A DNA stretch of 64,000 bases, taken from positions 55 to 64,054 of the forward strand of contig JAYUVP010000077.1 of the NCBI GenBank assembly GCA_043753995.1, in the 5' to 3' direction. Positions 4,646 through 29,130 of this stretch are shown here, one piece after another (positions within the stretch are counted from its first letter, which is position 1; each line of letters begins with the position of its first letter). The DNA comes from Fibrobacterota bacterium (lineage in GTDB: Bacteria > Fibrobacterota > Fibrobacteria > UBA11236). The position numbers and the translations under genes are program-made. Under the pieces are notes generated by a model, which was given only the letters and a program-made list of their open reading frames with translations, did no database searches and was not told the DNA's origin.

Positions 4646-4887
4646 GCCACGAAGGCACCATGCTGCGGGGCCGTATCGCGCAGACCGAACAAAAGCAGCG
4701 CATGCTTCGGGTCGAAGCAAAGTCTCTGATCGTCTCCATGCGACAAGACCTTGACCCTTACCAACCCAATCCCGCGAATCTCGCCACCGAGAGAATCATG
4801 ACGGCCGGAGTGCGCCTGCATGAGATCGCCACCGAACTGCGCGAAGTTGACGCCACGCTCATCGATATGCGGCAAGACCTTGGCTAA
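4642..4887 (+). CDS. hypothetical phage protein
   Basis: 81 aa ORF with 4-nt overlap to the upstream gene. No recognisable motif. Confidence 0.3.
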   Translation: MSHEGTMLRGRIAQTEQKQRMLRVEAKSLIVSMRQDLDPYQPNPANLATERIMTAGVRLHEIATELREVDATLIDMRQDLG

Positions 4888-6701: not shown

Positions 6702-6710
6702 GACACAGCC

Positions 6711-8288
6711 ATGACGCACTTTTTCACATCATCCACCAGCCCCGTCGCGCGCTTCGGCGCGGCTCCTGTGCCCGTGCAGGCGGTGCCGGTCATAGGCGGC
6801 GAAATCGCTACGCGCGCCCGAGCCATGGGCGAATATGCCGGGTGGATGAATCAGCTCCCCAATCCCGATCCCATACTCAAGGCGCGAGGCATCGACATCA
6901 GCAAATACCGCGAGCTGCTTTCCGATGGCTCGCTCTCGGGAGCGGTGAAATCACGCAAGTCGGCTTTGCAGAGTATGGAATGGGGCCTCAATCGCGCGAA
7001 GTCGAAGTCGCGCAAAGCTCGCCTCGTCGAGGACCATTTGAAAACGCTCGACCATCACCGCTTGCGATCGCAAATGTTCGAAGCCTCACTCTTCGGTTAC
7101 GTGCCCATTGAAATTTGCAAGTGGGAAGTCATCAACGGCGTGCGCTTACCCACACGCATCGAACAGAAGCCTCAAGAGTGGTTTGCCTTTGACAATCAGA
7201 ATCGCCTGCTATTCAAGAGCAAGGACAATTGGCAAGGCGAAGTCGTTCCCGATTATCAATTCCTTTGCCCAACCAATGACGCGAGCTATGCCAACCCTTA
7301 TGGCATCGGCGACCTGTCGCGCTGCTTCTGGCCGTCGATATTCAAGCGCAATGGATATTCCTTCTGGGTGACCTTCGGCGAACGCTACGGCATGCCATGG
7401 GTTATCGGCAAACTGCCGCGTGGTTTGGACCCCAAGGAATACGACGCGCTCAATGACAGACTCGCAAGCATGGTGCAAGATGCCGTCGCTGTCGTTCCGA
7501 CCGATGCCGACGTGAACCTATTAGAAGCCGGCGGCAAATCGGGATCGGTGGACGTGTATAGCCGCCTCGTTGAATTTTGCAAAGCGGAAATGTCGGTGGT
7601 CATGCGCGGGCATGAAGGCGCGACCAATAGCACCGCAGGTAAGCTAGGCGGCAGCGACACCGCAACCAAGGTCATGGATGAGATTCGTGACGGTGACGCG
7701 CGCATGTGCGAGGCTGCATACAATCAACTCGTTCGGTGGATTTACAAACTGAACTGGCCCAGCGAAACCGACATTCCCACCTTCGACATTTGGGAGAAGA
7801 AGGATGTCGACCAGGAGCTTGCCACGCGCGATGCTACTCTCACCGAAAAGCTCGGTGTGAAATTCAAGAAGGTCTATATCTCCGAGGCCTACGACCTGCC
7901 TCAAGACCAATTCGACATCGAGGAGCCCAAGCCTACGGCGCCGCCCGCCGAGAACCCTGCGGCTAAGCCCGAGCCCGGAGCGGCGGTACCGCCCAAGGTC
8001 GTCGTCAAAAAGAAATTCGCATTGCCCGTCACCTTCGCTCAGCAAAGCGATGCCGCCATGGCGCTGGAGGATGCAGTGAATAGCATTCCCGCCGAAGAAC
8101 TTCAAAGCATGATGGATAAGCTTTTAAAGCCGGTTTGGAAACTCTTGCAAAAAGGCACCACGGCCGAGGAAATCCAAAAAGCCCTCGTCGAGGCTTATCC
8201 CTTGATGGACGATGACCAGATTCTCACCTTGATGACCCAACCCATTTTCGTCGCTGACATTGTCGGCGGGCTCTCGGCGCAGAAATAG
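6711..8288 (+). CDS. portal protein (DUF935, Mu gp29 family)
   Basis: 525 aa. Clean ATG at 6711 with an upstream AGGA. Position between TerL and the Mu-F-like gene. Confidence 0.75.
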   Translation: MTHFFTSSTSPVARFGAAPVPVQAVPVIGGEIATRARAMGEYAGWMNQLPNPDPILKARGIDISKYRELLSDGSLSGAVKSRKSALQSMEWGLNRAKSKSRKARLVEDHLKTLDHHRLRSQMFEASLFGYVPIEICKWEVINGVRLPTRIEQKPQEWFAFDNQNRLLFKSKDNWQGEVVPDYQFLCPTNDASYANPYGIGDLSRCFWPSIFKRNGYSFWVTFGERYGMPWVIGKLPRGLDPKEYDALNDRLASMVQDAVAVVPTDADVNLLEAGGKSGSVDVYSRLVEFCKAEMSVVMRGHEGATNSTAGKLGGSDTATKVMDEIRDGDARMCEAAYNQLVRWIYKLNWPSETDIPTFDIWEKKDVDQELATRDATLTEKLGVKFKKVYISEAYDLPQDQFDIEEPKPTAPPAENPAAKPEPGAAVPPKVVVKKKFALPVTFAQQSDAAMALEDAVNSIPAEELQSMMDKLLKPVWKLLQKGTTAEEIQKALVEAYPLMDDDQILTLMTQPIFVADIVGGLSAQK

Positions 8289-8290
8289 CC

Positions 8291-9829
8291 ATGGGCGTTA
8301 CCAAGCCCGACATTGCGGCCGCATTCAATATGCCGCCTCGCCGCGCTATCGAATTCTTCGAGAGCAAGGGCAATGTCATTAATTGGGATTGGTATGAGAC
8401 ATGGCAAACCGCGCATAGCAAAGCCTTCACCGTTGCCAAAGCGATGAAGGCTGAAATCCTTCAAGACTTTCACGACGGTGTGCGGGACATCTTCGTTAAG
8501 GGCGACACCTACGAAGAGTTTCGGCGTAAGCTTGAGCCCAAGCTAAAGGCTGCGGGATGGTGGGGAAAACAAAAGGTCCTTGGCCCACATGGTGAGGAAG
8601 ATGTACAACTCGGATCACCGTGGCGGCTAAAGCGCATTTATCAAACCAATGCTGCCACAAACTTTTCGGCGGGGCGATGGCGGCAGTTTGTTGAGAATGC
8701 GGATGCACGGCCCTACTTACAATACCTTGCCACCCTCGACGGTCGCACGCGTCCCACGCATCGTGCCATGCATGGCAAGGTGTTTCGCATTGACGATCCC
8801 ATTTGGAAATATCTCTTTCCGCCGAACGATTGGGGTTGCCGTTGCCGCGTGCGGGCCTTGAGCCAGGCCGATGTCGAGCGCATGGGATTGATCGTCGAGG
8901 ATGGCAGCAAAGCCATCACTCACGAAGAGCGCCTGGTCTCGGCCAAGACAGGTGAGGTGAAGCCCGTCGCTGTGTACACCGACCCAGCAACCGGCAAGCG
9001 CATGGCCACGGGTGTGGGCTGGTCCTATAACCCGGGCATGAAGGACTTCGAGCCCGACCTTTCGCGCATTACCCCGGCCATTGCGAAAGCATATCGCAAG
9101 GAGGTGGCTGCCGCCGGGCTGACCCAGCGTTATCCCGTGACCAGCTATGGCGACATCGAAACTCTTCTTAAGGCCTATGACAAAGAGACTCCCGGCATTT
9201 TTCAGTTGGGCTTTAAGTCGATTGAAATCACCAATGCCAAATACATTATGGCCACCAATGCCATCGGTGAAATCAAATTGTCGCGACGCATTTCAGCCAG
9301 CGGATTCAATGGCGCAGAAAATCTATTGCAAGCGCTTCGCAAAGTTTCGTTGCGAGAGGCTTTGAGCTTTGACGAGGAATACGCCATCGAAGCGCTATGG
9401 CATGAGATCGGGCATTGCCGCATGCAAGGCTGGATGAAAGTTGCGAAGGGCAGCGTGTCCCAAACCGTGATGGAGACACTCAATCAGTGGGTTGCTCGGC
9501 ACACCTATTCTGACTTCTTGGCTCAGCTGGGAGGCAAAGCTGCGCACCAAGAAAAGATTTTGGCCGAGGGTGTGGGCTATCAGCGGTGGGTGGCGAATCT
9601 GCGCACAGCCATCAGCGCTTTGGGGGTGAATGAGCAAACCGCGCTCGGTGTTATTAAGCCGCTGGTATTCAGGCTGCCTTGGACCAAGCTTCAAGGGGCC
9701 GTGGCTTACGCGTTGGCACGGTTGTCAAACAAAGATGAGGCGATGATTAAGGCCGTGCTGGGAGACCTGTCACAATACCCAGGAACCTATACCGCCTTGT
9801 TAAAGGCCCTATTTAAAACCGAGGGTTAA
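8291..9829 (+). CDS. Mu F-like head morphogenesis protein (gp30 family)
   Basis: Contains the Phage_Mu_F signature region ...LATLDGRTRPTHRAMHGKVFRIDDPIWKYLFPPNDWGCRCRVRAL. Confidence 0.8.
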   Translation: MGVTKPDIAAAFNMPPRRAIEFFESKGNVINWDWYETWQTAHSKAFTVAKAMKAEILQDFHDGVRDIFVKGDTYEEFRRKLEPKLKAAGWWGKQKVLGPHGEEDVQLGSPWRLKRIYQTNAATNFSAGRWRQFVENADARPYLQYLATLDGRTRPTHRAMHGKVFRIDDPIWKYLFPPNDWGCRCRVRALSQADVERMGLIVEDGSKAITHEERLVSAKTGEVKPVAVYTDPATGKRMATGVGWSYNPGMKDFEPDLSRITPAIAKAYRKEVAAAGLTQRYPVTSYGDIETLLKAYDKETPGIFQLGFKSIEITNAKYIMATNAIGEIKLSRRISASGFNGAENLLQALRKVSLREALSFDEEYAIEALWHEIGHCRMQGWMKVAKGSVSQTVMETLNQWVARHTYSDFLAQLGGKAAHQEKILAEGVGYQRWVANLRTAISALGVNEQTALGVIKPLVFRLPWTKLQGAVAYALARLSNKDEAMIKAVLGDLSQYPGTYTALLKALFKTEG

Positions 9830-10107
9830 TTGCTGCGATCGAAAAGCACATCATGCGAAAGCAAGCCTTCACGGAATAACGCGTCCTCAATGCGGGCCGC
9901 ATACTCTTCGGCCTTCGCATCTTCGCCTCTGACTTGGTATAGCCGGACAATGTCGCCTAGCGCCGTGTCTTCGTCCCGTGGGAATGAGCGAATGGTCTCT
10001 TCGGGCGCATCGCCAAAGAGTTCTTCCAGCTCGCTACGGGTGGGTTTGTGGTCCCAGAGGTTTTCCATTGCCCGAATAATGTACCCCTCGAATGGCGGAC
10101 GCGCCAA
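9826..10107 (-). CDS. small acidic hypothetical protein on the opposite strand of the late operon
   Basis: 93 aa, TTG start in track. Fits exactly between F and G on the antisense strand. Coding status unverified. Confidence 0.3.
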   Translation of the reverse strand: MARPPFEGYIIRAMENLWDHKPTRSELEELFGDAPEETIRSFPRDEDTALGDIVRLYQVRGEDAKAEEYAARIEDALFREGLLSHDVLFDRSN

Positions 10108-10721
10108 GGAGTTTCAGGGACAACCCTGAAACGGCCTTTAAACGCCACAAAAACCCCATGCTGAAAAACATCACCGACAAGGCCGTGCTCGACCATCTCG
10201 CCAAGGTGGCGGCCCAAGTGCAGGACACCGCCCCGCTCATGGTGGAGCTATCAGGCGACCTGCATGCAGCCGTCGAGGAGAATTTTGAGGCACAGGGCCC
10301 AGGTTGGGCTCCGCTTGCCAAGAGCACCATCGCTGAGCGGCAGCGCAAGGGATATTGGCCGGGCAAGATTCTAAACCGTCATGGCGGCGCGGGGCTGGTG
10401 GGCAGCATCACCGCCGACAGCGATGTCAACACGGCCACGGCGGGCACGAATAAGCGCTATGCCCAGGCCCTCAACGATGGTGCGGAAATACATCAGGCGG
10501 CGCGCTCGAATCTGTATTCGAGCAAGCGCAAGACCAAGGGGAAGGGCAAGGGGCAGTTTACTGCGGGGACGGGGACTGAGACTGCGGGGGGCAAGGGTAA
10601 GTCGAGCTTCGGGGAGCGGGTGATTAAAATCCCGGGGCGAGCCTTTATGCTGCTGCACCCTCAGCAATTGCAGAGGGTGATGGATACGGCTACGGCGTGG
10701 CTGAAAAAAACGGTGGGATGA
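10092..10721 (+). CDS. Mu G-like virion morphogenesis protein
   Basis: Gene order F then G as in Mu. Probable true start MLKNITDK at about 10158. Gly/Lys-rich C-terminal region. Confidence 0.6.
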   Translation: MADAPRSFRDNPETAFKRHKNPMLKNITDKAVLDHLAKVAAQVQDTAPLMVELSGDLHAAVEENFEAQGPGWAPLAKSTIAERQRKGYWPGKILNRHGGAGLVGSITADSDVNTATAGTNKRYAQALNDGAEIHQAARSNLYSSKRKTKGKGKGQFTAGTGTETAGGKGKSSFGERVIKIPGRAFMLLHPQQLQRVMDTATAWLKKTVG

Positions 10722-11910: not shown

Positions 11911-12309
11911 TTAATCCTTCAGAATCAAAACCGTGAAGAGCACTCCGCCCGCCGTCAAGGCCAAGGTGAGGACCTGAACAAAGGCCATAGTTTCAAGAGC
12001 CTTTGCCATCCTATCCAATTCCGGCTTTATTGATTCAGGCTGTGGGCAAACTACAGTCTGGTCGCGCAGAATCGTTTTACTGGTCTCAACCGGCCTTGTC
12101 GTCACTGTGTACTTATCGCCATTTTTGTCCACGCGCACATCAGTTTTTGCATTCAAGGTTTTCGCCGCACGCGCGCCATCTCCCGTCGTGTCCCCTTCAA
12201 GGCGCTCCACCGTCGAATCAGGTGCGCAGCACTTAACCACCTCGGCAGCCTGACAATACCCAGCCACCACAATCAAACCGGACGCAATGGCTAAGCCCTT
12301 TAAACGCAT
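11911..12309 (-). CDS. exported hypothetical protein with C-terminal membrane anchor
   Basis: Signal peptide MRLKGLAIASGLIVVAGYC and a C-terminal hydrophobic helix. Confidence 0.45.
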   Translation of the reverse strand: MRLKGLAIASGLIVVAGYCQAAEVVKCCAPDSTVERLEGDTTGDGARAAKTLNAKTDVRVDKNGDKYTVTTRPVETSKTILRDQTVVCPQPESIKPELDRMAKALETMAFVQVLTLALTAGGVLFTVLILKD

Positions 12310-12345
12310 TTCTATCCCTTTGAAATTGTTATACCGCCAACCACC

Positions 12346-12891
12346 TCACCAATTCGCCGTGTCCTTTTTGGCCTCGCCAATTGCCGCCCAAAGGGTCGCC
12401 TCCAGCAATCCCGATTCGGTCTTTGCTTTTTCCTGAAGGTCGGTCCAGGTCTTTTGGTTTTGTTGCTTCTTCAGCCCCTCGGGGATACTTGGCGCCGACG
12501 TCAGGAATCCAACACTCCCCCAAGCCGACTTGCCTTCGTGGCGAAAGTCCCGGAATTCATAACGGTATCTCCCGTCCTTCACATCCACGATGAACGTGTA
12601 GTTGACGTATCCCCTTATTCCATCTGAACCCATAAAAACCACGGGCTCATACTCGAAGTTTGCTTTGCCTATGATTCGGCCTCGCTGTGGATTCTTGTAC
12701 TTAATGACTTCATTCGAAGAACCAAAAGTCAGCGCAGCCCACTCTTCGATAACGCCAAACAAAGAATCCTTGCTCATTCCAGGAACTTGCGCGACACCGC
12801 GAAACTCTAGTGGTGGCGCAGAATCCTTCTCGCCGCCAAATGCAACAGCAGCAATGAACCCGCAAGCAATTACCAAGCCTTTTAAACGCAT
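12346..12891 (-). CDS. exported hypothetical protein (DUF4468-like?)
   Basis: Signal peptide MRLKGLVIACGFIAAVAF, nearly identical to that of the neighbouring gene. RBS AAAAGG 12 nt upstream. Confidence 0.45.
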   Translation of the reverse strand: MRLKGLVIACGFIAAVAFGGEKDSAPPLEFRGVAQVPGMSKDSLFGVIEEWAALTFGSSNEVIKYKNPQRGRIIGKANFEYEPVVFMGSDGIRGYVNYTFIVDVKDGRYRYEFRDFRHEGKSAWGSVGFLTSAPSIPEGLKKQQNQKTWTDLQEKAKTESGLLEATLWAAIGEAKKDTANW

Positions 12892-12902
12892 CCTAAAACC
12901 TT

Positions 12903-13190
12903 TTGATTGTGTTTTAACGCGACCGAACTCGTCCCGAAAATCCCCGCAGAGATTCAGGCTTCAGCGCCCAGAAGGACAGCCGTTGCCCCTGTGTTCTCCG
13001 TAAGTTACTCAGGGCATCCCTTACACCAAAAACATAGCCCCAAGGACGGGGCGCCAAGGAAAGAAACCCTCATGGCTTCCGCTTCTCAGAAGGCGCGCCA
13101 GCGGCGCGATCGTTTGGCACGTTCTGCGGCTTTACTTGTGAAATGTTTTGAGTTGCGATTGATTTTGTGTAATCCACCAAACGCGTCAGC
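12903..13190. repeat. two copies of a TTGATT(T)TGTGT..AACGCG motif flanking the 3' end of the repressor gene (operator/enhancer or alternative element-end candidate)
   Basis: Copy 1 at 12903-12928 (ttgattgtgttttaacgcgaccgaac). Copy 2 at 13159-13189 (ttgattttgtgtaatccaccaaacgcgtcag). A third site at 12933-12951 (cccgaaaatccccgcagag) is similar to the AAAAACGCGAAAG core. Confidence 0.35.
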
Positions 13191-13630
13191 CTCCGTCGAA
13201 ACTGCTCTTCCCGCCCCTCAGCTCGGAGCTCCCGCAACTCATCAATCGCCATCCCAATTAGCTCAGCTCGAACCGATTCAGAAAACCCAGGGCCATCTCC
13301 CAATAGTTCAAGAACCGTTTTTTGAGCCAAAAGCAGATCGTCGCCACGAGTCCTTTTTGACTTGAATACGACAGGCTGTTGAGGAGGGGGAGCTTCGCCC
13401 CCATGAAACCATTCGCTAAAAACACGAAATTGCTCAGGCGAAAGACTCTTATTTAGCGTTTGCCACTGAATTCCTCGCTTTCTCCAATTAACGATAGCGG
13501 AGTCTGTGACTCCCAAAGCTTGAGCCAGAGCTCGATTAGAGCCGTGGCCTTTCGTGATTTGCAGCGAATCTTTTAGCTGCTCAAGCGCTTCATCAATTGT
13601 TCTCAAAGTCAAAACCCAAAAAAAGTTCAA
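13070..13630 (-). CDS. Mu c-like repressor (HTH DNA-binding)
   Basis: HTH segment RALAQALGVTDSAIVNWRKRG. Divergent from ner/A/B, as the Mu c repressor is. TTG start in track, so the true start may be internal. Confidence 0.55.
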   Translation of the reverse strand: MNFFWVLTLRTIDEALEQLKDSLQITKGHGSNRALAQALGVTDSAIVNWRKRGIQWQTLNKSLSPEQFRVFSEWFHGGEAPPPQQPVVFKSKRTRGDDLLLAQKTVLELLGDGPGFSESVRAELIGMAIDELRELRAEGREEQFRRRLTRLVDYTKSIATQNISQVKPQNVPNDRAAGAPSEKRKP

Positions 13631-13668: not shown

Positions 13669-13895
13669 TGGTCGTGAGACAACCTAAGACTAAACCTAAG
13701 AAAGCGCCGAGCACTCTCCAGCTTTTGATTGCAGCTCGGTCAATATCTGGAATTTCGGCGACCCAATTTGCCGAATCGCTTGGCGTAACTAGGCAAGCTG
13801 TCCTTGAGACCGCAAAAAATCCGCGGAAGTCCCAGCGAATCGCATCAGCAATCCGACGCTTCATTTCACTTCATGTCTCGGCAGAGGTAGCATGA
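13644..13895 (+). CDS. Ner-like small DNA-binding regulator
   Basis: 83 aa with HTH (ISATQFAESLGVTRQAVLET). Immediately upstream of the transposase and overlapping it by ATGA. The start may be the internal ATG at 13665. Confidence 0.55.
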   Translation: MFHKVSIMVVVRQPKTKPKKAPSTLQLLIAARSISGISATQFAESLGVTRQAVLETAKNPRKSQRIASAIRRFISLHVSAEVA

Positions 13896-15952
13896 CCCGC
13901 TCCACTGCCCTAAAAGTTTCCTCGGCATCACCAGCTGCCAAAACCTCGACCCCAACATCCTGTCCGATGCTGTCGACTCGCGAGGTCGCCGAATTGATTG
14001 GCGTAAGCGATGAGCGGAATCTGCGCCGCGACCTACGTCGAGGGCGCTTCGAGTTCACCTGTGAACCCACTTCAAACGGCCTTCAATACCGCATTGCGCT
14101 GACCTCGCTCCCGCTCGACGCCCAGCTCCGCTACTGGCAAGCCCGTGGCGTGGCCATGCCATCCACCGTCACGCCAGTCGCGCCCACGCTTTCGCCCAGC
14201 CAGGAAATTGAAGTCGAAATGAGCATTCTAGCCCGCGCGCCCATGCACGCGCGCAAAAAGGCCGACAAGTATCTCGCCATTCTCAATGCGGCCGAGGGCC
14301 TCAAGGGTCATGAGCTGCGCGGCTTCATCACCGCCTGGAACAAGAGCAACCCGACTTTCCAAACCAGCTATCAGCGCGTGCTGCAAGCTCGTAAGGATTA
14401 TAGCGAAGGCGGTGTCGCGTCCCTACTCGCTCGCTATGGCTGGCGTGCCGGTGAAACCGCCGTGCCCGACGCCCACTTTCAATTCTTCCTCACCCTCTAT
14501 CTCAAAGAGGGTGGCGCTCCGCTCTATACCTGCTGGGTCGCGACCATGGGGCATTTCGGCAAGACCGACGCCACCATCACCATCGACAATTATCCCAGCC
14601 ATTATGCCTTTCAACGCCGCTTGGAGCGGGAAGTCCCGCTCCCCGCCATCGTCAAGGCCCGCGAGGGTGAAGCCATCTATGCCCGCCGCTTCGGCAGTTT
14701 CATCGAACGCGACCTGAGCGCGATCGCCCCCGGCGATTGTTGGATTTCTGATCACGCTCAAATCGACGTGATGATGATTGCGCCCGATGGCAAATTCGTG
14801 CGCCCATGGATCACGGCATGGCGCGATTTTAAGTCGGGAGCTTGGCTCGGCTGGTATGTTCACGCGCAAGCGCCCAACTCCGATCACATTTTCCACGCCT
14901 TTCATTTAGCCGCCATCGAGCATGGCCTACCGACCGACATCCTGATTGATAATGGCAAGGACTATCGCTCGAAAGATTTCGCCGGCGGACGTAAGCCTAT
15001 AGACGAGGTGCAAGCCCGCTCCCTCGTCGGCGCTCTCGGTATCTCCGCGCATTTCGCACGGCCATACAATGCCCGCGCCAAGACCATCGAACGCGATTTC
15101 CACACGCAAAAACTTTGGTTCTCAAAATTCATGCGCGGCTATACCGGCGGCAGCGTCACCGAAAAGCCCGAAGCACTAGAGCGCGACAAGTCTTCGGGCT
15201 CATGCATGCGCCTCGGCGATTTCATTGCCTTGTTCGACACCTTCGTCAAAGACGTGCTCAATGCCATGCCCTCCTGGAGCAAGGTCAATCAAGGCTTACC
15301 GCGTCAGGCTTATTTCGATGCGCATTGCCCAGCCCGCCGCCGCGTCAGCCCCGAAGCTCTAGCCCTTTTCTGCATGCGTACCGACGGCAACTTCGCCATC
15401 GGTCGCAATGGCATCCACGACAGCAAGCACGGCGTGACTTATTGGGATGAGCGCCTAGTCGCCATGGCTGGCCGCACACGCTGCTATCTGCGCCGCGACC
15501 CGCGCAATCACTTAGAGGCATGGGTCTATAACGACGCCACCAACGAATTGATTTGCAAAGCCCACGCCATCGAATCACCTGCGGCCCTGGTGCGCACCGA
15601 AGCCGATCGCCACACCTTGCAGCGCGAAACCAAGCGGGCAGCAACGCAGACCAAGATCATCAACTCATTCACGAAGCAGGGTGTGCAGCCTCCACCCGCC
15701 GACATCATCGCGGCTATGGCTTCTGGCGCAAAAATTCTGACGGCGAAAAATGCGCCAGTGCCTGCGCGTGAAATTCCCGAGCAAATCAGCATCACCAAAA
15801 TGGATCACGCTATCGCAGCCGAGAAGCGCATGCAGCAAACCGGCAAGCATGACCCTGCGGCTGTTCGCCCGATGATGCAGCCCAAGAAAAAGAAAGAGTC
15901 GCTCTCGTTATTCGCCAGCGACTTGCCGCCGACAAAGCGCACGGCCAGCTAG
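13892..15952 (+). CDS. Mu-type DDE transposase (MuA family)
   Basis: 686 aa. N-terminal Mu DNA-binding-like domain. rve/DDE core region (...WISDHAQIDVMMIAPDG...). Followed by a MuB-like ATPase. Confidence 0.85.
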   Translation: MTRSTALKVSSASPAAKTSTPTSCPMLSTREVAELIGVSDERNLRRDLRRGRFEFTCEPTSNGLQYRIALTSLPLDAQLRYWQARGVAMPSTVTPVAPTLSPSQEIEVEMSILARAPMHARKKADKYLAILNAAEGLKGHELRGFITAWNKSNPTFQTSYQRVLQARKDYSEGGVASLLARYGWRAGETAVPDAHFQFFLTLYLKEGGAPLYTCWVATMGHFGKTDATITIDNYPSHYAFQRRLEREVPLPAIVKAREGEAIYARRFGSFIERDLSAIAPGDCWISDHAQIDVMMIAPDGKFVRPWITAWRDFKSGAWLGWYVHAQAPNSDHIFHAFHLAAIEHGLPTDILIDNGKDYRSKDFAGGRKPIDEVQARSLVGALGISAHFARPYNARAKTIERDFHTQKLWFSKFMRGYTGGSVTEKPEALERDKSSGSCMRLGDFIALFDTFVKDVLNAMPSWSKVNQGLPRQAYFDAHCPARRRVSPEALALFCMRTDGNFAIGRNGIHDSKHGVTYWDERLVAMAGRTRCYLRRDPRNHLEAWVYNDATNELICKAHAIESPAALVRTEADRHTLQRETKRAATQTKIINSFTKQGVQPPPADIIAAMASGAKILTAKNAPVPAREIPEQISITKMDHAIAAEKRMQQTGKHDPAAVRPMMQPKKKKESLSLFASDLPPTKRTAS

Positions 15953-15967
15953 CCCATAAAAAAACAA

Positions 15968-16960
15968 ATGCGGCAGCCACCCGAGGGCAACTGCCGCATC
16001 CCGTTGACCAAAGCCCCTCGATTAAAAGGAGCCAAGCCAGTGGCAAAAGTAGCAAGGAAGCAATACAACGACGAACTTCACGATAAGTTCATCGAATTCA
16101 TGAACGCACCGGGAGCCCCCTCCCAGTCCGACGTTGCCAAGGCGATGGGATGGTCGACGACCACCATCAGCCAATATCGAGGCCGAACCTATCAAGGGGA
16201 TGTCGATAAGCTTGAGCTTCAAATCACACAGTACATAGTTCGTGAGAAGGATCGCGCCGCTGCCCCAAAAATCAAAACAGATTTTGTCGAAACCTCTGTT
16301 GCCGCGCGAATTTGGGAGGTCGCCTACATCACCCACATGGACGGCGAGATCGGAGTATTGGTCGGCAAAGCTGGCATCGGCAAGACAAAAGGCTGCAAGC
16401 GTTACGCCGAACTCAATGATGACGCCTGCGTCTATTTGTGCGCTAACAAAAGCTGGACGGCTCGCGTGCTTTTCCGCAAAATCCTCGAATCGGTAGACGG
16501 GGCCATCACCGGGAACTTGTCACAGCTTTTCGACAATGCTGTGACCAAGCTAAAAGGCTCGGGTCGAATGTTCATCGTCGATCAGGCTGAATACTTGCCT
16601 CACACTGCGCTCGAAATGCTGCGCAGCCTGCATGACGACTCAGGAGTGAGTGTGTTGCTGGTTGGGTTGGTCAGCCTCTATCACAATTTGCGGCAAGAGG
16701 GTGGTAAGAACGAGCAAATCTATTCGCGTGTTGGCATCTACCACAACCTGGAAGCGCCGATGAGTGCTGAAGACGCCGCCATGCTCTTCTCGGCCATGAC
16801 TGGGCGCGTAGCTCCTGTCGGCGAACTCAATAAGCTGTGCCGCAATAATGCGCGCTCGCTGCAAAAACTCACTCGGCGAGGCACCGCTATCGCCGCCAAC
16901 AACAACCGCGAACTTGACGCCGAGTGCCTGACCGAGGCCGCCAAGTACGTGATGTTTTAA
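15968..16960 (+). CDS. MuB-like AAA+ transposition ATPase
   Basis: Walker A GKAGIGKT. Probable true start is GTG at 16040, preceded by AAAGGAG. Confidence 0.75.
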   Translation: MRQPPEGNCRIPLTKAPRLKGAKPVAKVARKQYNDELHDKFIEFMNAPGAPSQSDVAKAMGWSTTTISQYRGRTYQGDVDKLELQITQYIVREKDRAAAPKIKTDFVETSVAARIWEVAYITHMDGEIGVLVGKAGIGKTKGCKRYAELNDDACVYLCANKSWTARVLFRKILESVDGAITGNLSQLFDNAVTKLKGSGRMFIVDQAEYLPHTALEMLRSLHDDSGVSVLLVGLVSLYHNLRQEGGKNEQIYSRVGIYHNLEAPMSAEDAAMLFSAMTGRVAPVGELNKLCRNNARSLQKLTRRGTAIAANNNRELDAECLTEAAKYVMF

Positions 16961-17439: not shown

Positions 17440-17876
17440 GCAACGCCATCCAACTCAGAATCATTCACGCGGTGAAACGTGAGGCCGGAATCAAGGAAGG
17501 CGAATACCGCGACCTCTTGCGCGATATGTTCGATCGCGGTTCCAGCTCTGACCTTACTGAGAAGCAGGCAGATGAATTCATTACTCATCTGCGTGTGCTC
17601 GCTGGCCAACAAACCGGCGGCAAGGGCGTAAACCCGCACACGCATCTCGACAATCGACCGGGCTTTGCTTCTTCGAAGCAGCTCGGCATGCTCGAAGGAA
17701 TGTGGTCTGAGGTTTCCGTCGCAGAGAACAAACGCAAAGCCCTCGAATCCTTTTTGCGCGGGCGTTTCCGCATCAATGGCCTCGCTTGGATTCGCGAGCA
17801 TGAGGTGCGAAAGATTCACACGGCGATAAGCGCCATGCAGGCGCAGAAAAAGAAAGGAGTGGCCCATGTCGCATGA
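17436..17876 (+). CDS. GemA-like regulatory protein (Mu gp16, DUF1018 family)
   Basis: Probable start MSNAIQLRIIH. Size and sequence are typical of the GemA family (recall). Confidence 0.5.
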   Translation: MSNAIQLRIIHAVKREAGIKEGEYRDLLRDMFDRGSSSDLTEKQADEFITHLRVLAGQQTGGKGVNPHTHLDNRPGFASSKQLGMLEGMWSEVSVAENKRKALESFLRGRFRINGLAWIREHEVRKIHTAISAMQAQKKKGVAHVA

Positions 17877-18300
17877 AACACTTGAAGCTCTTATCGACGA
17901 AAAGCTCACCTTGAAGCGCAATCGCGCCATGCTCGACGAGCGCGAAGAAGAAGTCAATGCCAAGCTCGATCGCTTTTTCAAGCACGACGCGCCCGCCGAG
18001 CAGCTCAATACGCCTTTCGGATCCATCGTTCGGGTCGTGCATGAGGATCGGGTGCTTGCGAACGCGGCGTTTCCCCTTGCGGCTGAGGCCTTACATGATC
18101 AGTTCAATGAATACTTCAATATCGATGTGGTCATTGTTAGGCCCACGACCAAGTGCCTGCAAATGGCCGCCGATAAGCGCAACCCGATTTATCAGTTGAT
18201 GTATGACCATCTCATCGTAAAACGGACGGTCTTTTATACGGCCATGCCGGCGAGCCCGTTGCAATACACGGAAGGCCCTAGCCATGCGAGGCGGTCATGA
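17866..18300 (+). CDS. hypothetical early protein with N-terminal coiled coil
   Basis: 144 aa. Overlaps the neighbouring genes on both sides by a few nucleotides. Confidence 0.4.
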   Translation: MSHETLEALIDEKLTLKRNRAMLDEREEEVNAKLDRFFKHDAPAEQLNTPFGSIVRVVHEDRVLANAAFPLAAEALHDQFNEYFNIDVVIVRPTTKCLQMAADKRNPIYQLMYDHLIVKRTVFYTAMPASPLQYTEGPSHARRS

Positions 18301-18518
18301 TGCACGAATTGCCGCCTGTCTGGGCTCTATTCCTCTTCAATTGCATCGGCTTATTGCTCTCGCTTTTCACCTATCGCCGCTGTCGTGAGCATAACCGCCG
18401 CGTGTGGCATTCCATGCGCGTGGGCATTGCTGCGCCTGCGGTCATGGCTGCGCTTTGCGCCATCGCCGGTGCCGCGTCCTTTGTTTTGCTGCTCATCAAC
18501 CCCAACTTTCACCCGTAG
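18297..18518 (+). CDS. small two-TM membrane protein (kil-like position)
   Basis: 73 aa with two hydrophobic helices. Confidence 0.4.
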   Translation: MMHELPPVWALFLFNCIGLLLSLFTYRRCREHNRRVWHSMRVGIAAPAVMAALCAIAGAASFVLLLINPNFHP

Positions 18519-18526
18519 GAGTCGCA

Positions 18527-19054
18527 ATGTCCGTTTTAGTTGAAATCGAAGAGCTCACAAAAAAGTATTCCATCGACTATGCGACCCTGACCGAATACGT
18601 CGGCGATTTGAATGTTGAATTGGAAGCTTTAAAACGCACTCGTATCAAGCGGTTAAAAATCTTGGTGCAGCGTGCCGTCGAAAGTCGGGAGACATTGAAA
18701 GCTGGAATCAATGCGAATCGTGAAATTTTCAAAAGCCCTAAAACTCACGTTTTCCATGGCATAAAAGTGGGTCTGCAAAAGGCGAAGGGTAAGCTCGATT
18801 GGGAAGATGACGATAAGGTTGTCGAGCTCATCGAGAAAAAATTCGAAGACATCGCCGACACGCTTATCATCACCAAGAAAAAGCCCAACAGTAAAGCGCT
18901 CGAAGAACTTGACGTCAAGGAACTCAAGAGCATCGGCGTGAGCACTGTCGAGGGTAGCGACTACGCCTACATCAAACCTGTCGACAGCAATGTCGACAAG
19001 TTGGTAAAGGCTTTGCTCAAGGAGAACGATGATGGGGAAGACGATGACGGCTAA
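18527..19054 (+). CDS. Gam-like host-nuclease inhibitor (Mu Gam family)
   Basis: ATG at 18527 after TAGGAG. C-terminal half (KTHVFHGIKVGL..KGKLDWEDDDKVVELIEKKF..IITKKKPNSKALEEL..KSIGVSTVEGSDYAYIKP) parallels the Mu Gam pattern (KTANLVTGDVSWR..IRTKQEINKEA..GITVKSGIEDFSIIP). Lower GC than its neighbours. Confidence 0.5.
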   Translation: MSVLVEIEELTKKYSIDYATLTEYVGDLNVELEALKRTRIKRLKILVQRAVESRETLKAGINANREIFKSPKTHVFHGIKVGLQKAKGKLDWEDDDKVVELIEKKFEDIADTLIITKKKPNSKALEELDVKELKSIGVSTVEGSDYAYIKPVDSNVDKLVKALLKENDDGEDDDG

Positions 19055-20240: not shown

Positions 20241-20570
20241 ATGCAAGAGACAAATTTCGATTGGCTCACCCCTGAAGACTTGCCCACCAAGCCCCTGCGT
20301 GACTTGGCTGAGGCTGTTGGTATTCCCGCCACGGTCAAGCTGCTTCAGAGCATGGGCGGTCAGTCGATTTACTTCCCACTGAATTGGCGTGTAAGTCTCG
20401 TCGAGGCTTACCTCGCGGCTGGGCGCTGGGATGGAGTGCGCGGTGCGGACCTGGCTGCGGCTCTCGGCATCTCTCGGACCTCGGCTTACCGCATTCTGAA
20501 CAGCAAGAGGACAAGGCCGGTGAAGCTGGCTAAAACCAAGGGTTTTGAACAGGTGAAAATGGACCTTTAG
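20241..20570 (+). CDS. Mor/C-family middle/late transcription activator
   Basis: 109 aa with C-terminal HTH (LAAALGISRTSAYRIL). Size and position match the Mor family. Confidence 0.6.
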   Translation: MQETNFDWLTPEDLPTKPLRDLAEAVGIPATVKLLQSMGGQSIYFPLNWRVSLVEAYLAAGRWDGVRGADLAAALGISRTSAYRILNSKRTRPVKLAKTKGFEQVKMDL

Positions 20571-20668
20571 AGTGTGTTTAAAGGCCTCTAAAATCGGCGT
20601 TTAATTTGGTGTGTTTTTCTTTAGGTTGAAATTGACCCCCCTCCCCCCGTCTTTTGTCTGTTACCTGT

Positions 20669-20924
20669 CTTTCGCTGGTTTTTGTCGTTTTCTTTTCAAT
20701 TTCGCTGGTTTCCGCGCTTTTTTTGCTTTTGAATTGTTGACCCCCTTCATGACCTCCCTCTCTGGATCATTTTCGGCAATTTTGCGCAGTTTTAGACGGT
20801 CAAATACCAAACTGTCCGCACTTTTCTGCGCTTTTTAGGAAATTCCGGCAAAAAGTCTCAAACTGATTTTGTCGTCGTAAGTCCTGATTTTACGGGCTCT
20901 TTCGCGTTTTTCCGGGGTGTGCCA
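20669..20924. mobile_element. Mu-type terminal region with five MuA-binding-site-like repeats, element end at about 20924 (..GTGTGCCA)
   Basis: Repeats YTTTCGC(N)GTTTTT at 20669, 20699, 20779, 20821 and 20897. The reverse complement of the outermost (TGGCACACCCCGGAAAAACGCGAAAG) closely matches the Mu right-end R1 site (TGAAGCGGCGCACGAAAAACGCGAAAG). Confidence 0.6.
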
Positions 20925-20990
20925 GAATTCTCAAACTGCGCGCTCCCCTACAGCCACCCCTCCCCACCTTCCTTCACCTTGATCCAGGGT

Positions 20991-22361
20991 TTAATCCACC
21001 GCAATCGCCTTTTCGATCAAATTGCCGATTTTGTCCCAGGTGATTTGAAATTTACGCGTGATGCCTTTTCGCGTTTCCCGGTATTTCACTTTGATGCTGT
21101 CCGCAACAAAGCGCCCATCCACTTCGCCGGTATTTCCATCGGCAAAGGTGACCGTCATTTGCACGTTACCCTGGGCACGCAATTCCAGGGGTGACGCCGG
21201 CGCATCGGCTTTAAAGGTGAACCGGCTGGAAGCCAATACTCCATTACGCCACTCCCAGGCTGCGGCATAGCTAAGCAGGCGATTGCCGGCATCATCGCGC
21301 GGCGTGGGCGATACGACGACGACAAAAGCATCGGCTCGGGAAATCCTATCGGATGTCGAATCAAAGACCACCATGCGATCGATATTCACGGTGTCTCCAG
21401 GGGAGAATAAGGAATCGCTTCCCCGCCCTCGCAATCGGAATGTCACGCTTTTGCCATCCTTCTCCAGACGATCTTCCTGATAAAAATGCGGCCTAAGGAC
21501 AAAGCCTTTGCGCAATAAAGTGGCTTTAAGCTTTCGCGTAGATTTCAGCACGGGCCCCAGCGGCAGATCATAGGTCACATGCACGAGCCTTATTTCACCC
21601 GAGTCCCCGCGCCACAGCAAACCATCCCCGTCAAGGTCGTGAATGGAAACGGCTTCCGAGGTGTCGTTCCCACGACCGCGCCAAAAACCATAGCTCGCAA
21701 ATCCGAATCCACCGATGTCATGGGGATTGGCCGCTGAATCGGGCACCACGTCCAGTACATGAAGACGAAAGGCTGAGCCGGGGCTATAAAGCAACCGAAT
21801 CACGCCTTTGTCGAGGAGGCCAACGCTATCGCTATTCACGAATTTCCATGTTTTGATAAAACCGGATCGCGACAACGTCCCCTTGCGAAGCAGGAGCAAA
21901 TTGCCGCTTTCTTCGCTTTGGCTGAAACCTGAATCAAAACGGTAGACCAAAGTGTCTTCTTCGCGCTGCAGTAAGCCGGGGCCGGTTTTCACTCGCACTT
22001 TTCGGGCTAGGCCACGTGCCGTGTCCGACAGGTCCCAAAGTAGGGTTTCCGCTTGGGATGCTGCAGCTTTCAGTAAGGCCGCCTGCTTAGGCGCCACTGG
22101 CTCGATAAAGCTTGATTCGGCTTCAGAAATTCCGGTTGGGGTGATAGGAATATTATCGAATTCATTCCAATCGCTTTGAGCCGCAACCTGGCTTGCTGCG
22201 GCCTTGCCCAAGGGTTCCAAAGTATTGGGGAAATCTTCAGCGCCCGCGCGCCTATCGTCTTCCTGCTGAAGGAAGCAGCCGGGCAAGGCAATACACAGAA
22301 ATGCCGCGGCGAAGGCCCAACCGGCCCAATTCAAACCTCGGCGAAGACCCACGGTATTCAT
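20991..22361 (-). CDS. hypothetical lipoprotein/exported protein
   Basis: 456 aa. Signal peptide with an LPGC lipobox-like sequence. Confidence 0.5.
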   Translation of the reverse strand: MNTVGLRRGLNWAGWAFAAAFLCIALPGCFLQQEDDRRAGAEDFPNTLEPLGKAAASQVAAQSDWNEFDNIPITPTGISEAESSFIEPVAPKQAALLKAAASQAETLLWDLSDTARGLARKVRVKTGPGLLQREEDTLVYRFDSGFSQSEESGNLLLLRKGTLSRSGFIKTWKFVNSDSVGLLDKGVIRLLYSPGSAFRLHVLDVVPDSAANPHDIGGFGFASYGFWRGRGNDTSEAVSIHDLDGDGLLWRGDSGEIRLVHVTYDLPLGPVLKSTRKLKATLLRKGFVLRPHFYQEDRLEKDGKSVTFRLRGRGSDSLFSPGDTVNIDRMVVFDSTSDRISRADAFVVVVSPTPRDDAGNRLLSYAAAWEWRNGVLASSRFTFKADAPASPLELRAQGNVQMTVTFADGNTGEVDGRFVADSIKVKYRETRKGITRKFQITWDKIGNLIEKAIAVD

Positions 22362-24609: not shown

Positions 24610-25938
24610 TCAGGGGAATGCGGAAAAGGCACCGGCGGCCCGGAGAATTTGCAAATCGCGATCCCGGCAATCGAACAATTGCCCAACGGATTGTTTGACC
24701 GCCGAGAGATATCGCTCCTCATTCAAGTGCACTTCAACTTGCGAAACGCCACCGGCACGAAGGCGCTCCATCATGAGCCGTGCCGATTCGGCAGCCAAGG
24801 CGCGATTGCGACGCTCCAACCCCAAGGCTTCGCGACAGCCACCCATTTGCGATGCGGCCCGGTCTAAATCGACCTTGGCTTTTTCCAAGGCCCAGGCGCT
24901 TCGCCATACGGTTTCACGTGCCAAGGCACGTGCCTGACGCGCAGCTTCCGGCAAGGATCCGAAACTGATCAAGTTCAAGCGGACTTGCGCTCCCACCGAA
25001 GTGCCCAGGGCTTGATTGTAAGCTACCAGGCCTGCTTCAGCCTTGTTCAAGGAGTAGTTATAACCCGCCGTTAAGCTCAACTTGGGCCAAAGTTCAGACA
25101 GGGAATTTTTCCATCCCGCTTGGGCTAAGCGCTCGCCTAAACGACTGCGACGCACCTCTATGGATTGCTCGCTGATTTGCTGATTCAGTTTTTGCGCGTC
25201 GCGACTGGGTGGATCGCCTGGATCACTCAAGGCCGCAGCCAAGGTGACCAGGGAACTTTCCGCCTCAGCGGTTTGAGGGGCTTGTAACCACTGGGCCAGA
25301 CCTCGCCAAGAATTCGACAAGGCCTGACGGGCGCGAATTCGCGCTGCCTGCTGGGCCAGCAAGTCTGCTTCAGCAGCTAATTCTTCTTGCCTTGAAATAC
25401 CACCCGCCGCTCGCATGGCGCGCACCAACCTTAATCTTTCTTCGGTGAGCATCACCAAGGTGTCGGCGGCTAAACTCAATTCCCGATCGCGCAAGACGCC
25501 GTAATAGGCTCCGGCAGCTTGCAAAGCCACTTCCAATTTGACTTCATCCAGGCGCAAGGCGGCCAGGTCGCGTTGCAAGCCCAATTGCGAGCGAAGCGCC
25601 GGCGTCTTTAAGCCTTCAAATACCGTCCAGCTTCCATTGATGCCCGCCGTATAAGCCGTGGAAACGGCACCGTTTTTCACCGAATCGGCGGTCGAGCCTA
25701 GGCGGCGCACACGCGTGTCCTGCAGGTTTTGATTGACTCCCGCGGTGGCGTCGATTCTGGGCCAGGCTCCCGCCTGATTCCAGGTGACTGAAGCTTCCGC
25801 GCGCGCCAGGGCTTCGCGCTCGGCTAAAACCAGGGGGTTGCGCTCTTGTGCGGTTTGAATGGCCTCCTCCAGCTTAGTCGGCCATCGAAAAGGTCCTTCC
25901 TCAGCTATTCCCAAACGGACACCACCCAGCAAGACCAT
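24610..25938 (-). CDS. outer membrane efflux factor (TolC family); start uncertain, in-frame with the upstream RND gene
   Basis: About 443 aa C-terminal part of the 1506-aa track ORF. Has the paired coiled-coil/beta-barrel repeat character of OMF proteins. The first in-frame ATG gives MVLLGGVRLG. Confidence 0.6.
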   Translation of the reverse strand: MVLLGGVRLGIAEEGPFRWPTKLEEAIQTAQERNPLVLAEREALARAEASVTWNQAGAWPRIDATAGVNQNLQDTRVRRLGSTADSVKNGAVSTAYTAGINGSWTVFEGLKTPALRSQLGLQRDLAALRLDEVKLEVALQAAGAYYGVLRDRELSLAADTLVMLTEERLRLVRAMRAAGGISRQEELAAEADLLAQQAARIRARQALSNSWRGLAQWLQAPQTAEAESSLVTLAAALSDPGDPPSRDAQKLNQQISEQSIEVRRSRLGERLAQAGWKNSLSELWPKLSLTAGYNYSLNKAEAGLVAYNQALGTSVGAQVRLNLISFGSLPEAARQARALARETVWRSAWALEKAKVDLDRAASQMGGCREALGLERRNRALAAESARLMMERLRAGGVSQVEVHLNEERYLSAVKQSVGQLFDCRDRDLQILRAAGAFSAFP

Positions 25939-28900
25939 CAAGCCAACCAGGGTCGCCAGCTTACCCTGCCAGCCGGGTTTCGTCCCGGGACCGTTCCCTA
26001 CCGGTGACGTCTCAGGGCCGTGACCTGCATTCGGAGCCTTGCCGGCGAGATAGGTATACAGGGCCGGGATGATATAGAGGGTAAGCACCAAACTGAAAAG
26101 CAAGCCACCCACCACGGCCACGCCCATGGGAATGCGGCTTTGCGATCCCGCTCCCAAACCCAAAGCAATAGGCAAGGTGCCTAAGGCAGTGGTTAGGCTG
26201 GTCATCACAATGGGCCGAAAGCGCGAGGCCGATGCGGAAAGAATGGCCTCGCGCAAAGGCAGGCCTTGTTCACGTCGCTGATTGGCGAATTCGACAATGA
26301 GAATGCCGTTTTTCGTCACCAAGCCGATGAGCATGATGAGACCGATTTCACTAAAAATATTCAGTGTTTGGCCGGTGAGCCGAAGCGAAGCCAAGGCACC
26401 GAAAAGCGCCAAGGGTACGGTCAGCATGACCGTGAATGGATGCCGAAAGCTTTCGAACTGAGCGGCAAGGGTGAGGTAAACCATGATCAGAGCCATAAGA
26501 AAAGCAAAAAGCAAGCTGCTTTTGCTTTCGGCGAAATCACGCGAAGGACCGTTTAAAGCCGTGGTGAAGGACGGCCCTAAAACTTGGCCGCCGATGCGCT
26601 GCATGGCGGCTATGCCTTCGCCCATGGTCTTGCCGGGAGCCAAGCCTGCCGATACGGTCGCCGATACATAACGGTTGAAGCGATAACGCTGGGGCGGCCC
26701 GCTTTGCTCGTTCAGGCGAACCAAATTGGCAAGCGGCACCAAGTTACCGCTCTGGGTACGCACGGGAACCGCGAGCAAATCCGAAGGCTCATCGCGAAAT
26801 GGCGCATCCAATTGAGCCACTACATTGAATTGCCGGCTGTCCTTGATGAAATAATCGATGCGAGTTTCCCCATAGGCCGCCTGCAGGGACTGGGCTACAA
26901 CACCCACCGATGCCCCCAAGGATCGAGCCCGGTCGCGATCGACATTCACGCGCAATTGCGGACGGTTGAATTTGAGGTTTTCGTCGACCACGACAAAGGT
27001 GGGATCTTTACGCGCTTCCTCCAGGAATTTCGGTAATACGGACCGCAAGGATTCAAAGTCGGGCGCTTGAATCACAAGTTGTATGGGAAGACCGGCGCGC
27101 GTACCCACCTGAATGGTTTGATCCTGGCTGGCGAAGGCGCGCATGTCCGTCATGCCACGCAAGGCGCCCCCCAACAAATCGGCGATTTGCTGCTGACTGC
27201 GCTGGCGTTCCTCAGGATCGACCAGAATCAAACGCATGAAGGCGCCATTCGAACCGCCGCCGCCGACAAATCCAGGAGACGTGACGGAAAGAACATTCGC
27301 CTCCGGTACAATATTGGAAACCATATCCACTAACCGTACCACGGTGGCATCCATGGCGGCATAGGAGGTGCCTTCCGCCGTGGAAGCGGTGACATTGATA
27401 ATGCTTCGATCTTCTAGTGGGGCCAATTCACTCTTGATGGTGGTCATCAAGGCATAGGTGCCCACCATGGTCGCTACGAGTACAACCCAGGCGACGATGC
27501 GAATATTGAGAAAAGCCTGCAAGGACTTGCGATAACCGTTGATGAGTCCTTCGAAAAAAGGCTCGGTGCGATGATAAATCGAATTGACGCCGGGACGGCG
27601 TAAGAGCCGCGCGGATAGCATAGGCGTCAAAGTGAGTGAGACGAAGGCCGAGATCAAAACCGATCCCGCCAGCACGATGCCGAACTCACGAAAGAGCCGC
27701 CCGGTAAAGCCACCCAAAAACATGATAGGCAGGAAAATCACCACCAGAACCAAGGTCGTGGCCAAAACTGCGAAAAAAATCTCACGCGATCCGCGAAAGC
27801 CCGCTTGCATGGCCGGCTCGCCTTTTTCAACTCGAGCATAGATGGCCTCAAGCACCACGATGGCATCGTCCACGACAAGGCCAATGGCCAAAACCAAGGC
27901 CAAAAGGGTGAGCACATTGATGGTGAAGCCAGCCAAATACATGATGAAAAAACCACCGACCAAGGAAATGGGAATGGCCAAGGCGGGGATGATAGCGGTA
28001 CGCCAACTGCGCAAAAACAGGAATAAAACCAGCAAAACCAGAACAAAGGCGATGGCAATGGTTTCGCGCACTTCGAGTACCGACCTCTCAATGAAACGCG
28101 TATTGTCGAAAGCGATTTTGAGACGTATGTCCTCGGGAACCTCTTTCTTTAATTTCTCAAATCGCTGATAAAAATGATGGGCAATCTCCAGGGCATTGGC
28201 ATTGGGTTGGGTGATGAGGGCGAGACCCACCATGGGAATCCCATTCATGCGCAAAAGGGTACGCTCGTTTTCGGAACCAAGCACAACGCGACCAATATCG
28301 CTCACGCGCACGGCGCCTTCGGGTTTGGAACTGATGATGATATTGCCGAATTCTTCCGGAGTCGACAATTTTGCGGGAGCCACCACACTCAATTCGATTT
28401 GCGGTCCTTCCAGTCGCCCAGAAGGCAATTGCAAATTGTCCTGACGCAAGGCTTGGCGAACATCGTCCAGGGTAAGGCCCCGCGCTGATAGCTTGAAAGG
28501 ATCCAGTAATAATCTCATGGCATAGCGGCGCTCGCCCCAAATGCGCACTTCAGCTACGCCCGGAATGGTTTCCAGCTTTTCCTTGAGATGGGTGCCGACT
28601 TCATTCACTTCCAGCAAGGGCCGCTTGTCGCCTTGAACCGTCATCACCAAGATGGGAAAGGAATTGGCGTCGGCCTTGGCAACTGTCGGTGGATCCGCAT
28701 CCGCGGGCAAAGAGCGCAGCACACGGCTGACTCGATCGCGGACGTCATTGGCCGCTGCGTCGAGATCGGTGGCGATATCGAATTCCACCGTGATTTGACT
28801 ACGGCCCTCCTGACTGGTCGAACTCAAATTGCGAATGCCGTCTACGCCATTGATTGAGGCTTCGAGTGGCTCGGTGATTTGAGTTTCGATGACATCGGCA

Positions 28901-29130
28901 ACGGCACCGGCATAGGTGGTGGTGACCGTAATGGTGGGTGGATTGACGGCGGGAAATTCACGCACGCCCAAAAACCCGAAAGACACGGCACCAAGCACCA
29001 ATAAAAAAACGGACATGACCAGAGTGAGCACAGGCCGCCTTATGCACAAGGCACTCAAAGTGTTGCGCGAAGCTGCGTCTAGCTGGGCCTCTTTTTCAGG
29101 ATCCATCTGATTCAATGCGTCTTGCTGCAT
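25939..29130 (-). CDS. RND efflux permease (AcrB/HAE1-like)
   Basis: About 1060 aa with 12-TM RND architecture. No stop codon precedes the OMF-like region, so the boundary is inferred from typical RND length. Confidence 0.75.

Follow-up and report, generated by a model that had tools for sequence, protein, structure and literature searches.

A Probable Terminus of a Mu-like Transposable Prophage, Beside Its Early Operon, in a Fibrobacterota Contig

The region 20571-20952 of the 64,000-nucleotide stretch analysed here (the window) is very probably one terminus of an integrated Mu-like transposable prophage, which adjoins the early operon of the phage and has its tip at 20952. The family-conserved repeats at this end are TCTCAAACT cores and not the Mu-R1-like repeats of an earlier, sequence-only reading of the same DNA, which had placed the boundary at 20924 and had recognised, rightly in kind, a Mu-family end next to host DNA.

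Results

An Early Operon Abuts Host DNA

The end lies between Mu-type phage genes and host-type genes, and the following features frame it.

4820-10721, + strand: Mu-type packaging and head module (DUF1804 TerS, TerL, Portal_Mu, Mu F, G)
13070-13630, − strand: helix-turn-helix repressor-like gene
13892-15952, + strand: MuA/TnsB-superfamily DDE transposase, 686 aa (Pfam DDE_2, rve, Mu-transpos_C, HTH_Tnp_Mu_2; I-gamma domain)
15968-16960, + strand: MuB-like AAA+ transposition ATPase (Pfam AAA_22, E 7.5e-19)
17866-19054, + strand: two Gam-like genes of the early operon
20241-20570, + strand: mor-family activator gene, the last phage gene before the end (Pfam Mor PF08765, E 5e-7)
20571-20952, no strand: non-coding terminal region with no credible ORF; holds all repeat families, and the composite score (below) peaks at 20952
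20991-22361, − strand: host lipoprotein gene, 456 aa (lipobox LPGC; stop codon 38 nt from the tip)

The early operon, consisting of the repressor, a ner-like gene, MuA, MuB, the Gam-like genes and Mor, stands at one end of the prophage, and the order thereby differs from the classical Mu order. Between the mor stop and the stop codon of the lipoprotein gene (20571-20990), the DNA is non-coding, repeat-rich and T-rich on the + strand. To the right of 20991, the genes for the lipoprotein, a TIGR02147-family protein, a histidine kinase and an RND efflux system are all host-type, with no phage genes among them; the neighbouring product can be called a lipoprotein, as had been claimed, because its lipobox is present. 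With Mu genes on the left and host genes on the right, the locus is therefore a Mu-like prophage whose early operon abuts one end. The end thus sits at a junction between phage genes and unrelated host genes, and the element itself encodes both a MuA-family DDE transposase and a MuB-type ATPase. The ORFs for MuA, MuB, Mor, portal, TerL and MuF are full-length, and the capsid-side genes continue leftward past the left edge of the window.

The 686-aa transposase is presumably the enzyme that acts on the 20952 end. Compared with PDB sequences, it matches the type V-K CAST TnsB at E 2e-12 and MuA (4FCY) at E 1e-3. It is only ~25% identical to the transposases of sequenced phages, and hundreds of relatives, 35-46% identical, occur in metagenomes and MAGs; a viral-contig scan with a single MuA protein query yielded no relatives. 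An exact-protein look-up of the window Mor and MuA returned no record, and exact copies of the window endolysin and lipoprotein were found only on short Logan contigs. The read set SRR23617192 contains these sequences too.

Several other genes of the window are of separate interest. The Gam-like pair encodes a 144-aa protein resembling the Mu_Gam/Sipho_Gp157-TOTE domain and a 216-aa protein resembling Phage_Mu_Gam, both matches being weak. Two cargo-like genes, one with DUF4468 (TBP-like fold) and one of 132 aa with no family match, lie between the head module and the repressor (11911-12891, − strand). On the host side, residues 27-1029 of a 1506-aa ORF (24610-29130, − strand) resemble an RND efflux permease and residues 1089-1501 a TolC-like outer-membrane channel; this apparent fusion could be real or the product of a missed stop or frameshift. 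A 1147-aa host protein (40970-44413, − strand) has an unusual architecture, with several repeats like the C terminus of protochlorophyllide reductase subunit B and rubredoxin/rubrerythrin-like motifs.

The Tip of the Element Lies at 20952

The tip was placed by comparison with about 160 related loci (numbered L001 and so on), whose ends carry the signature 5'-TRTA-N11-AGTTTRAGA when read inward, with the tip 15 nt outside the outermost core throughout the family. The corresponding features of the window are as follows.

20949-20952, + strand: element tip ...TACA-3' (inward 5'-TGTA), the TRTA consensus 15 nt outside core site 1
20953-20957, no strand: GCCAC, predicted right-hand copy of a 5-bp target-site duplication (by analogy with L141, L022 and L002)
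20929-20937, − strand: core site 1, AGTTTGAGA read inward, putative transposase binding site (nt 16-24 from the tip)
20856-20864, − strand: core site 2, AGTTTGAGA followed by TTTTTGCCGGAA (nt 89-97 from the tip)
20805-20813, − strand: core site 3, degenerate, AGTTTGGTA (nt 140-148 from the tip; site 3 of relatives at 137-153)
20787-20796, + strand: core-like site in the opposite orientation, CAGTTTTAGA on the + strand

The junction at 20952 reads ...CTACA/GCCAC; the last bases of the element are ...CCCCTACA, and the host flank after A20952 begins with GCCACCCCTCCCC. The inward alignment of the window with L001 and L005 consists of TRTA, 11 nt and AGTTTRAGA. The similarity between the window and L001 extends over ~80 nt and spans 20925-20952, and the conservation with L005 likewise runs through 20925-20952. 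The boundary claimed at 20924 therefore does not stand, as the conservation with both loci continues for 28 nt beyond it to the family tip, and the end is 38 nt from the lipoprotein stop codon and not the 66 bp that had been given. The terminal TG and CA dinucleotides expected of Mu-family ends do occur at 20952, where TACA (20949-20952) is in register with the family tip, but not as an end at 20924. Many relatives have TA instead, and the duplication-confirmed tips among them start with TATA, whereas the window tip is TGTA. In L151 and L146, the common sequence begins 2 nt further out than the assigned tip, so that the tip is uncertain by about 2 nt.

A matrix for the tip alone is indecisive, as a match of equal or similar strength occurs inside the MuA gene (15143) and a single hit is not significant. 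We therefore used a composite score that combines the tip with sites 2 and 3 and was trained with the window left out, together with random-sequence controls. The composite score reaches 39.5 at 20952 on the − strand, a unique peak, compared with a maximum of 25.5 over 60 random windows. The next tip-like position is 15143, with a composite of 18.2; at 21021, where the tip component is negative, the composite is 28.4 and simply draws on sites 1 and 2 again. Together, the family alignment and the composite peak thus place the tip ...CTACA at 20952, to within about 2 nt.

A blastn search of the terminal 430 nt against the fetched related loci gave chance-level matches only, and the comparison was therefore done at the level of motifs. 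There is no closely related phage in the databases, the best MuA match being 46% identical, so the boundary rests on motif-level conservation rather than on nucleotide-level breakpoints or an empty site. No inverted tip of the TRTA-N11-AGTTTRAGA type occurs within the 64-kb window, whose left edge the prophage passes, and a search of the window found no relevant inverted copy of GGAAAAACGCGAAAG or long inverted repeat. A one-mismatch TCTTCAACTG at 11707 was considered as the left end and rejected because it has neither a TRTA in register nor companion sites.

Core Sites Are Conserved across the Family

The tip and core sites 1 and 2 of the window fit the family consensus, and both cores are exact. 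Indeed, TCTCAAACTG occurs exactly twice in the window, at 20856 and 20929, which are core sites 2 and 1. These are the two copies that had been described, each one base from its claimed position, as straddling the end; both lie inside the element. The sequence TTTTTGCCGGAA that follows core site 2 is also found in L005, L083 and L155. Distances of the cores from the tip are similar in the relatives (nt).

Window: 16/89/140
L134: 16/89/140
L151: 16/98/139
L083: 16/99/140
L005: 16/99/150

Several repeated putative transposase sites, conserved in loci with related transposases, thus lie less than ~200 bp from the tip. The TRTA tip and core are found at the left ends of relatives with the classical order too, with further cores at conserved distances. 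The Mor-proximal 16/89/140 spacing of the window (20805-20952) corresponds to these left ends, unlike the 16/38 spacing of the duplication-confirmed right ends, and this core spacing suggests that the phage interior has been permuted relative to the ends.

Mu-R1-like Repeats Are Clustered but Not Conserved

A second set of repeats is interleaved with the cores.

20899-20913, + strand: outermost T-rich repeat, CTTTCGCGTTTTTCC (inward GGAAAAACGCGAAAG), nt 40-54 from the tip; holds the 14-nt Mu R1 identity
20823-20836, + strand: loose copy of an A/T tract plus GCG repeat, TTTCTGCGCTTTTT
20669-20722, + strand: three further T-rich copies, CTTTCGCTGGTTTTT at 20669, TTTCGCTGGTTTCC at 20700 and TTTCCGCGCTTTTT at 20709, 230-285 nt from the tip
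20632-20640, + strand: TTGACCCCC motif, copy 1
20737-20745, + strand: TTGACCCCC motif, copy 2

The cluster itself is non-random: TTTCGC-N0-3-GTTT matches seven times in 64 kb, compared with 1.4 expected, and three of the seven are within 240 bp here. Five copies of YTTTCGC(N1-3)GTTTTT had been claimed, a consensus that has a single strict match (20669); relaxing the spacer to N0-3 gives two (20669 and 20899), and the copies at 20700, 20709 and 20823 follow the pattern loosely. Shorter words are shared, with TTTCGCTGGTTT at 20670 and 20700, TTTCGCGTTTTT at 20900, and TTTCYGCGCTTTTT at 20709 and 20823.

The outermost repeat, read inward as TGGCACACCCCGGAAAAACGCGAAAG, has 14 contiguous bases (GAAAAACGCGAAAG) identical to the Mu right end (NC_000929, TGAAGCGGCGCACGAAAAACGCGAAAG). 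Both this identity and the Mu sequence that had been quoted for it are correct, whereas the reading of the repeat as a MuA site is not borne out, as the R1-like element is out of register, beginning ~41 nt from the 20952 tip compared with 14 nt in Mu. The 22-bp consensus of Mu sites, YGTTTCAYTNNRAARYRCGAAAR, starts about nt 6 from the Mu tip. It has no match with up to three mismatches anywhere in the window; a half-site matches at 20899 and also twice within host genes. AAAAACG elements occur in the terminal region of L001 at other offsets, most relatives have nothing comparable, and the YTTTCGC..GTTTTT repeats are shared only in part with one relative. Because the R1-like element is variable or absent among relatives, lacks the full consensus, has its half-site in host genes and lies in the wrong register, we treat the 14-nt identity as possibly coincidental. 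A fixed bipartite site, with AGTTTGAGA and AAAAACG at constant spacing, was also considered; the offsets are 24, 26 and ~18 nt in the window and 32 and 16 nt in L001, and this hypothesis is unsupported because the offsets vary and most relatives lack the second element. The T-rich repeats (AAAAACGCGAAAG inward) are interleaved, lineage-specific accessory elements, which might provide secondary contacts, A-tracts that bend the DNA or sites bound by another protein.

Another repeat family lies 200-320 nt from the tip, represented by TTGACCCCC in the window and by TGATCCCCC, in both orientations, in L001 (19087-19230); L005 has TTGCCAACCC-like repeats. The two TTGACCCCC-type motifs that had been reported are indeed present, exactly twice in the window, although the first is at 20632 and not ~20627. 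These repeats might be a regulator binding site. A promoter and terminator scan of the region gave nothing informative beyond one promoter-like match.

Relatives Share the Gene Order and Have Moved

L001 and L005 both have the order head module, repressor (− strand), MuA, MuB and Gam2, with a detected Mor homologue in L001 as well, and L011 and L119 have parts of it. The arrangement is therefore a trait of the lineage rather than a local accident. At the corresponding ends, tip-type sequence lies 37 and 35 bp before the contig end in L001 and L119, and in L140 the tip is the contig end, 456 bp past Mor. Contigs that stop at such a place are what the assembly of a transposing phage produces. 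In L005, 550 nt of non-coding DNA come after the last early gene, and the tip abuts the terminator of host rpmA/rplU.

Identical ends with unrelated flanks are found in L151 and L146 and again in L134 and L137, demonstrating insertion at different sites for the family rather than for the window copy. Furthermore, L141 (TCAAT), L022 (GCGGG) and L002 (AAATC) have both tips, inverted, with perfect 5-bp direct repeats outside them. These duplications fix the tip at the T of TRTA and show Mu-type 5-bp staggered transposition in the family. For the window copy, GCCAC is predicted by analogy to be the target duplication.

The three duplication-bounded loci are complete elements of 8.5-10.5 kb without virion genes (L141:8440-16957, L022:346-9642 and L002:6156-16681), with inverted tips of the TATA-N11-(A/G)GTTTGAGA type. 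Cores lie at nt 16 and 38 in their right ends, and at nt 16 and beyond nt 150 in their left ends. Annotation covered L141 and L022, which both carry repressor, MuA and MuB, to which L141 adds a ner-like gene and DUF3800, and L022 adds GemA and a sigma-70 factor; in L002, the region immediately within the left tip holds MuA, MuB and a MuF fragment. The three can be read as natural "mini-Mu" elements, either deletion derivatives or possible satellites.

In 60 fetched loci, many labelled Gastranaerophilales or Melainabacteria, a second transposition module lies just inside the left tip, before MuA/MuB/GemA (e.g., L029:5540-12770; also L014, L016, L019, L021, L023, L025, L027, L031, L034, L039, L056, L057 and L066). 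It encodes a 665-aa transposase (rve and Mu-transpos_C; best PDB matches to type V-K CAST TnsB, weak), a 238-aa TniB/AAA_22-type ATPase and a 224-aa protein with no family match. Of the 48 such loci with enough upstream DNA, 32 have a same-strand tRNA gene immediately ahead of the element, with at least 10 tRNA types represented, and in the inspected loci the tip is ~50-100 nt past the tRNA 3' end (194 nt in one). The arrangement resembles a Tn7-style targeting of tRNA genes that has been added to a Mu-like phage. A literature search found no description of such a tRNA-adjacent second module in a Mu-like phage.

Discussion

Alternative Explanations

Could the element instead end at 20924, with five YTTTCGC..GTTTTT repeats acting as MuA sites homologous to Mu R1? 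The 14-nt identity, a TG at the proposed tip, the clustering of the repeats beyond chance and the AAAAACG elements of L001 all agree with such an end. We nevertheless consider it very unlikely, since the conservation with L001 and L005 passes 20924 and reaches the family tip motif, the R1-like element is missing from most relatives and varies in its spacing to the cores, the full Mu consensus is unmatched while its half-site recurs in host genes, and only one copy fits the consensus as stated. Still less probable is that 20952 ends a small early-gene-only element, like L141, L022 and L002, that happens to lie beside unrelated Mu-type head genes. Duplication-bounded elements of 8.5-10.5 kb are indeed among the closest relatives, but no left-type tip occurs on the + strand within the window (best score 8.9-10), and the junction between the head module and repressor-MuA is syntenic in L001, L005, L011 and L119. 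The chance that the region is no end at all is almost negligible. An internal regulatory region, controlled for example by Mor or the repressor, might contain the repeated TTGACCCCC motifs and the promoter-like match; however, phage DNA would then continue to the right, where every gene is host-type, and the relatives turn to host DNA or to a contig end at the same relative position.

A real end could also be a fossil, in which a defective or truncated prophage has lost transposition and the repeats are relics. This is unlikely, although several observations point in its direction: the left end is unobserved, at most 7.2 kb of the source contig lies beyond the window compared with ~20 kb more for the tail genes of relatives, core site 3 is degenerate, and deleted derivatives exist among the relatives. 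Against it, the principal early and head ORFs are full-length, the tip and first two cores keep the family consensus, and assembly is expected to break contigs within a transposable prophage or at its edge. The terminus of a Mu-like prophage with its tip at 20952 is thus the reading that we retain.

Comparison with Known Systems

The end resembles those of coliphage Mu (attL L1-L3, attR R1-R3) in many respects. The transposase has Mu-type catalytic and C-terminal domains and is accompanied by a MuB-like ATPase, the 5'-TGTA tip is exactly that of the Mu left end, several repeats that are putative transposase sites lie within ~150 bp of the tip, relatives of the window have 5-bp target duplications, and the end lies beside randomly chosen host DNA. 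It differs in that the core AGTTTGAGA starts at nt 16, whereas the Mu consensus starts at nt 6 and is unmatched here, in that the transposase is by sequence nearer to type V-K CAST TnsB than to MuA, and in that the early operon abuts the end with all virion genes across the repressor.

The Burkholderia transposable phage KS10, considered here along with BcepMu, has shuffled modules, with portal, terminase and lysis genes on the repressor side (PMC2628397). The putative transposase sites of KS10 are four 15-nt short A-rich direct repeats, unrelated to those of Mu, and no duplication was detected (PMC2628397). KS10 is thus like the window in its module shuffling and in putative transposase sites that differ from those of Mu, but its protease, capsid and tail genes still follow mor, whereas in the window nothing does. 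In Leptospira, transposable prophages have TA ends instead of TG...CA, B3/Tn552-type transposases, 6-bp duplications and a conserved gene order (PMC8705779). The TATA tips of most window relatives recall these ends, unlike the TG...CA of the window copy. The TnsB of Tn7-like and type V-K CAST elements is the best solved-structure match of the window transposase, and these elements have, like the window with its putative sites, multiple repeated transposase sites at each end, but the window lacks TnsA, TniQ and Cas12k. Gam, Mor and a full Mu-type head module, with GemA in relatives, therefore identify the element as a phage and not a Tn7-like transposon.

Proposed Mechanism

The window end has a conserved terminal architecture, its relatives have moved with 5-bp duplications, and its transposase and ATPase genes are intact. 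On the model of established Mu and Tn7 biochemistry, the transposase would bind the AGTTTGAGA cores through its N-terminal DNA-binding domains and would pair the 20952 end with the other end, outside the window. The strand would be nicked after the terminal A20952, the presumed point of cleavage and joining, and the 3'-OH would be joined to the target with a 5-bp stagger, presumably with the help of the MuB-like ATPase. Both the binding of protein to repeats and the cleavage point are drawn from these better-studied systems.

A more speculative proposal, to which we attach only a small likelihood, is that the transposase lineage forms a link from the Mu-like phages to the Tn7-like/CAST TnsB transposons. 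Ends of the one TRTA-N11-AGTTTRAGA type would then serve three kinds of element, namely duplication-bounded elements of 8.5-10.5 kb that lack virion genes; complete phages whose modules are permuted, the window included; and gut Melainabacteria phages with a second TnsB-like and TniB-like module, just downstream of many different tRNA genes. Under such a proposal, the window end would be a "left-type" end placed after the early operon, and the Mu-R1-like repeats would form a second set of recognition sites, read by another domain or protein.

Implications

The window end is of a kind that is ordinary among mobile elements. The element belongs to an uncharacterised family and has an unusual gene order. 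For annotation, the prophage boundary on this contig is corrected to 20952, 38 nt from the lipoprotein stop codon. TRTA-N11-AGTTTRAGA with cores near nt 90-100 and 140-150 provides a search signature for this large, uncharacterised group of transposable phages, whose members occur in MAGs labelled Fibrobacter, Nitrospirota, Thermodesulfovibrio and Melainabacteria. The case also carries a caution of method, in that a textbook resemblance to Mu R1 can mislead where the conserved, putative recognition cores differ from those of Mu. Finally, the gene order, in which the repressor side holds all virion genes and the early operon stands at an end, adds to the few known exceptions to the synteny of transposable phages.
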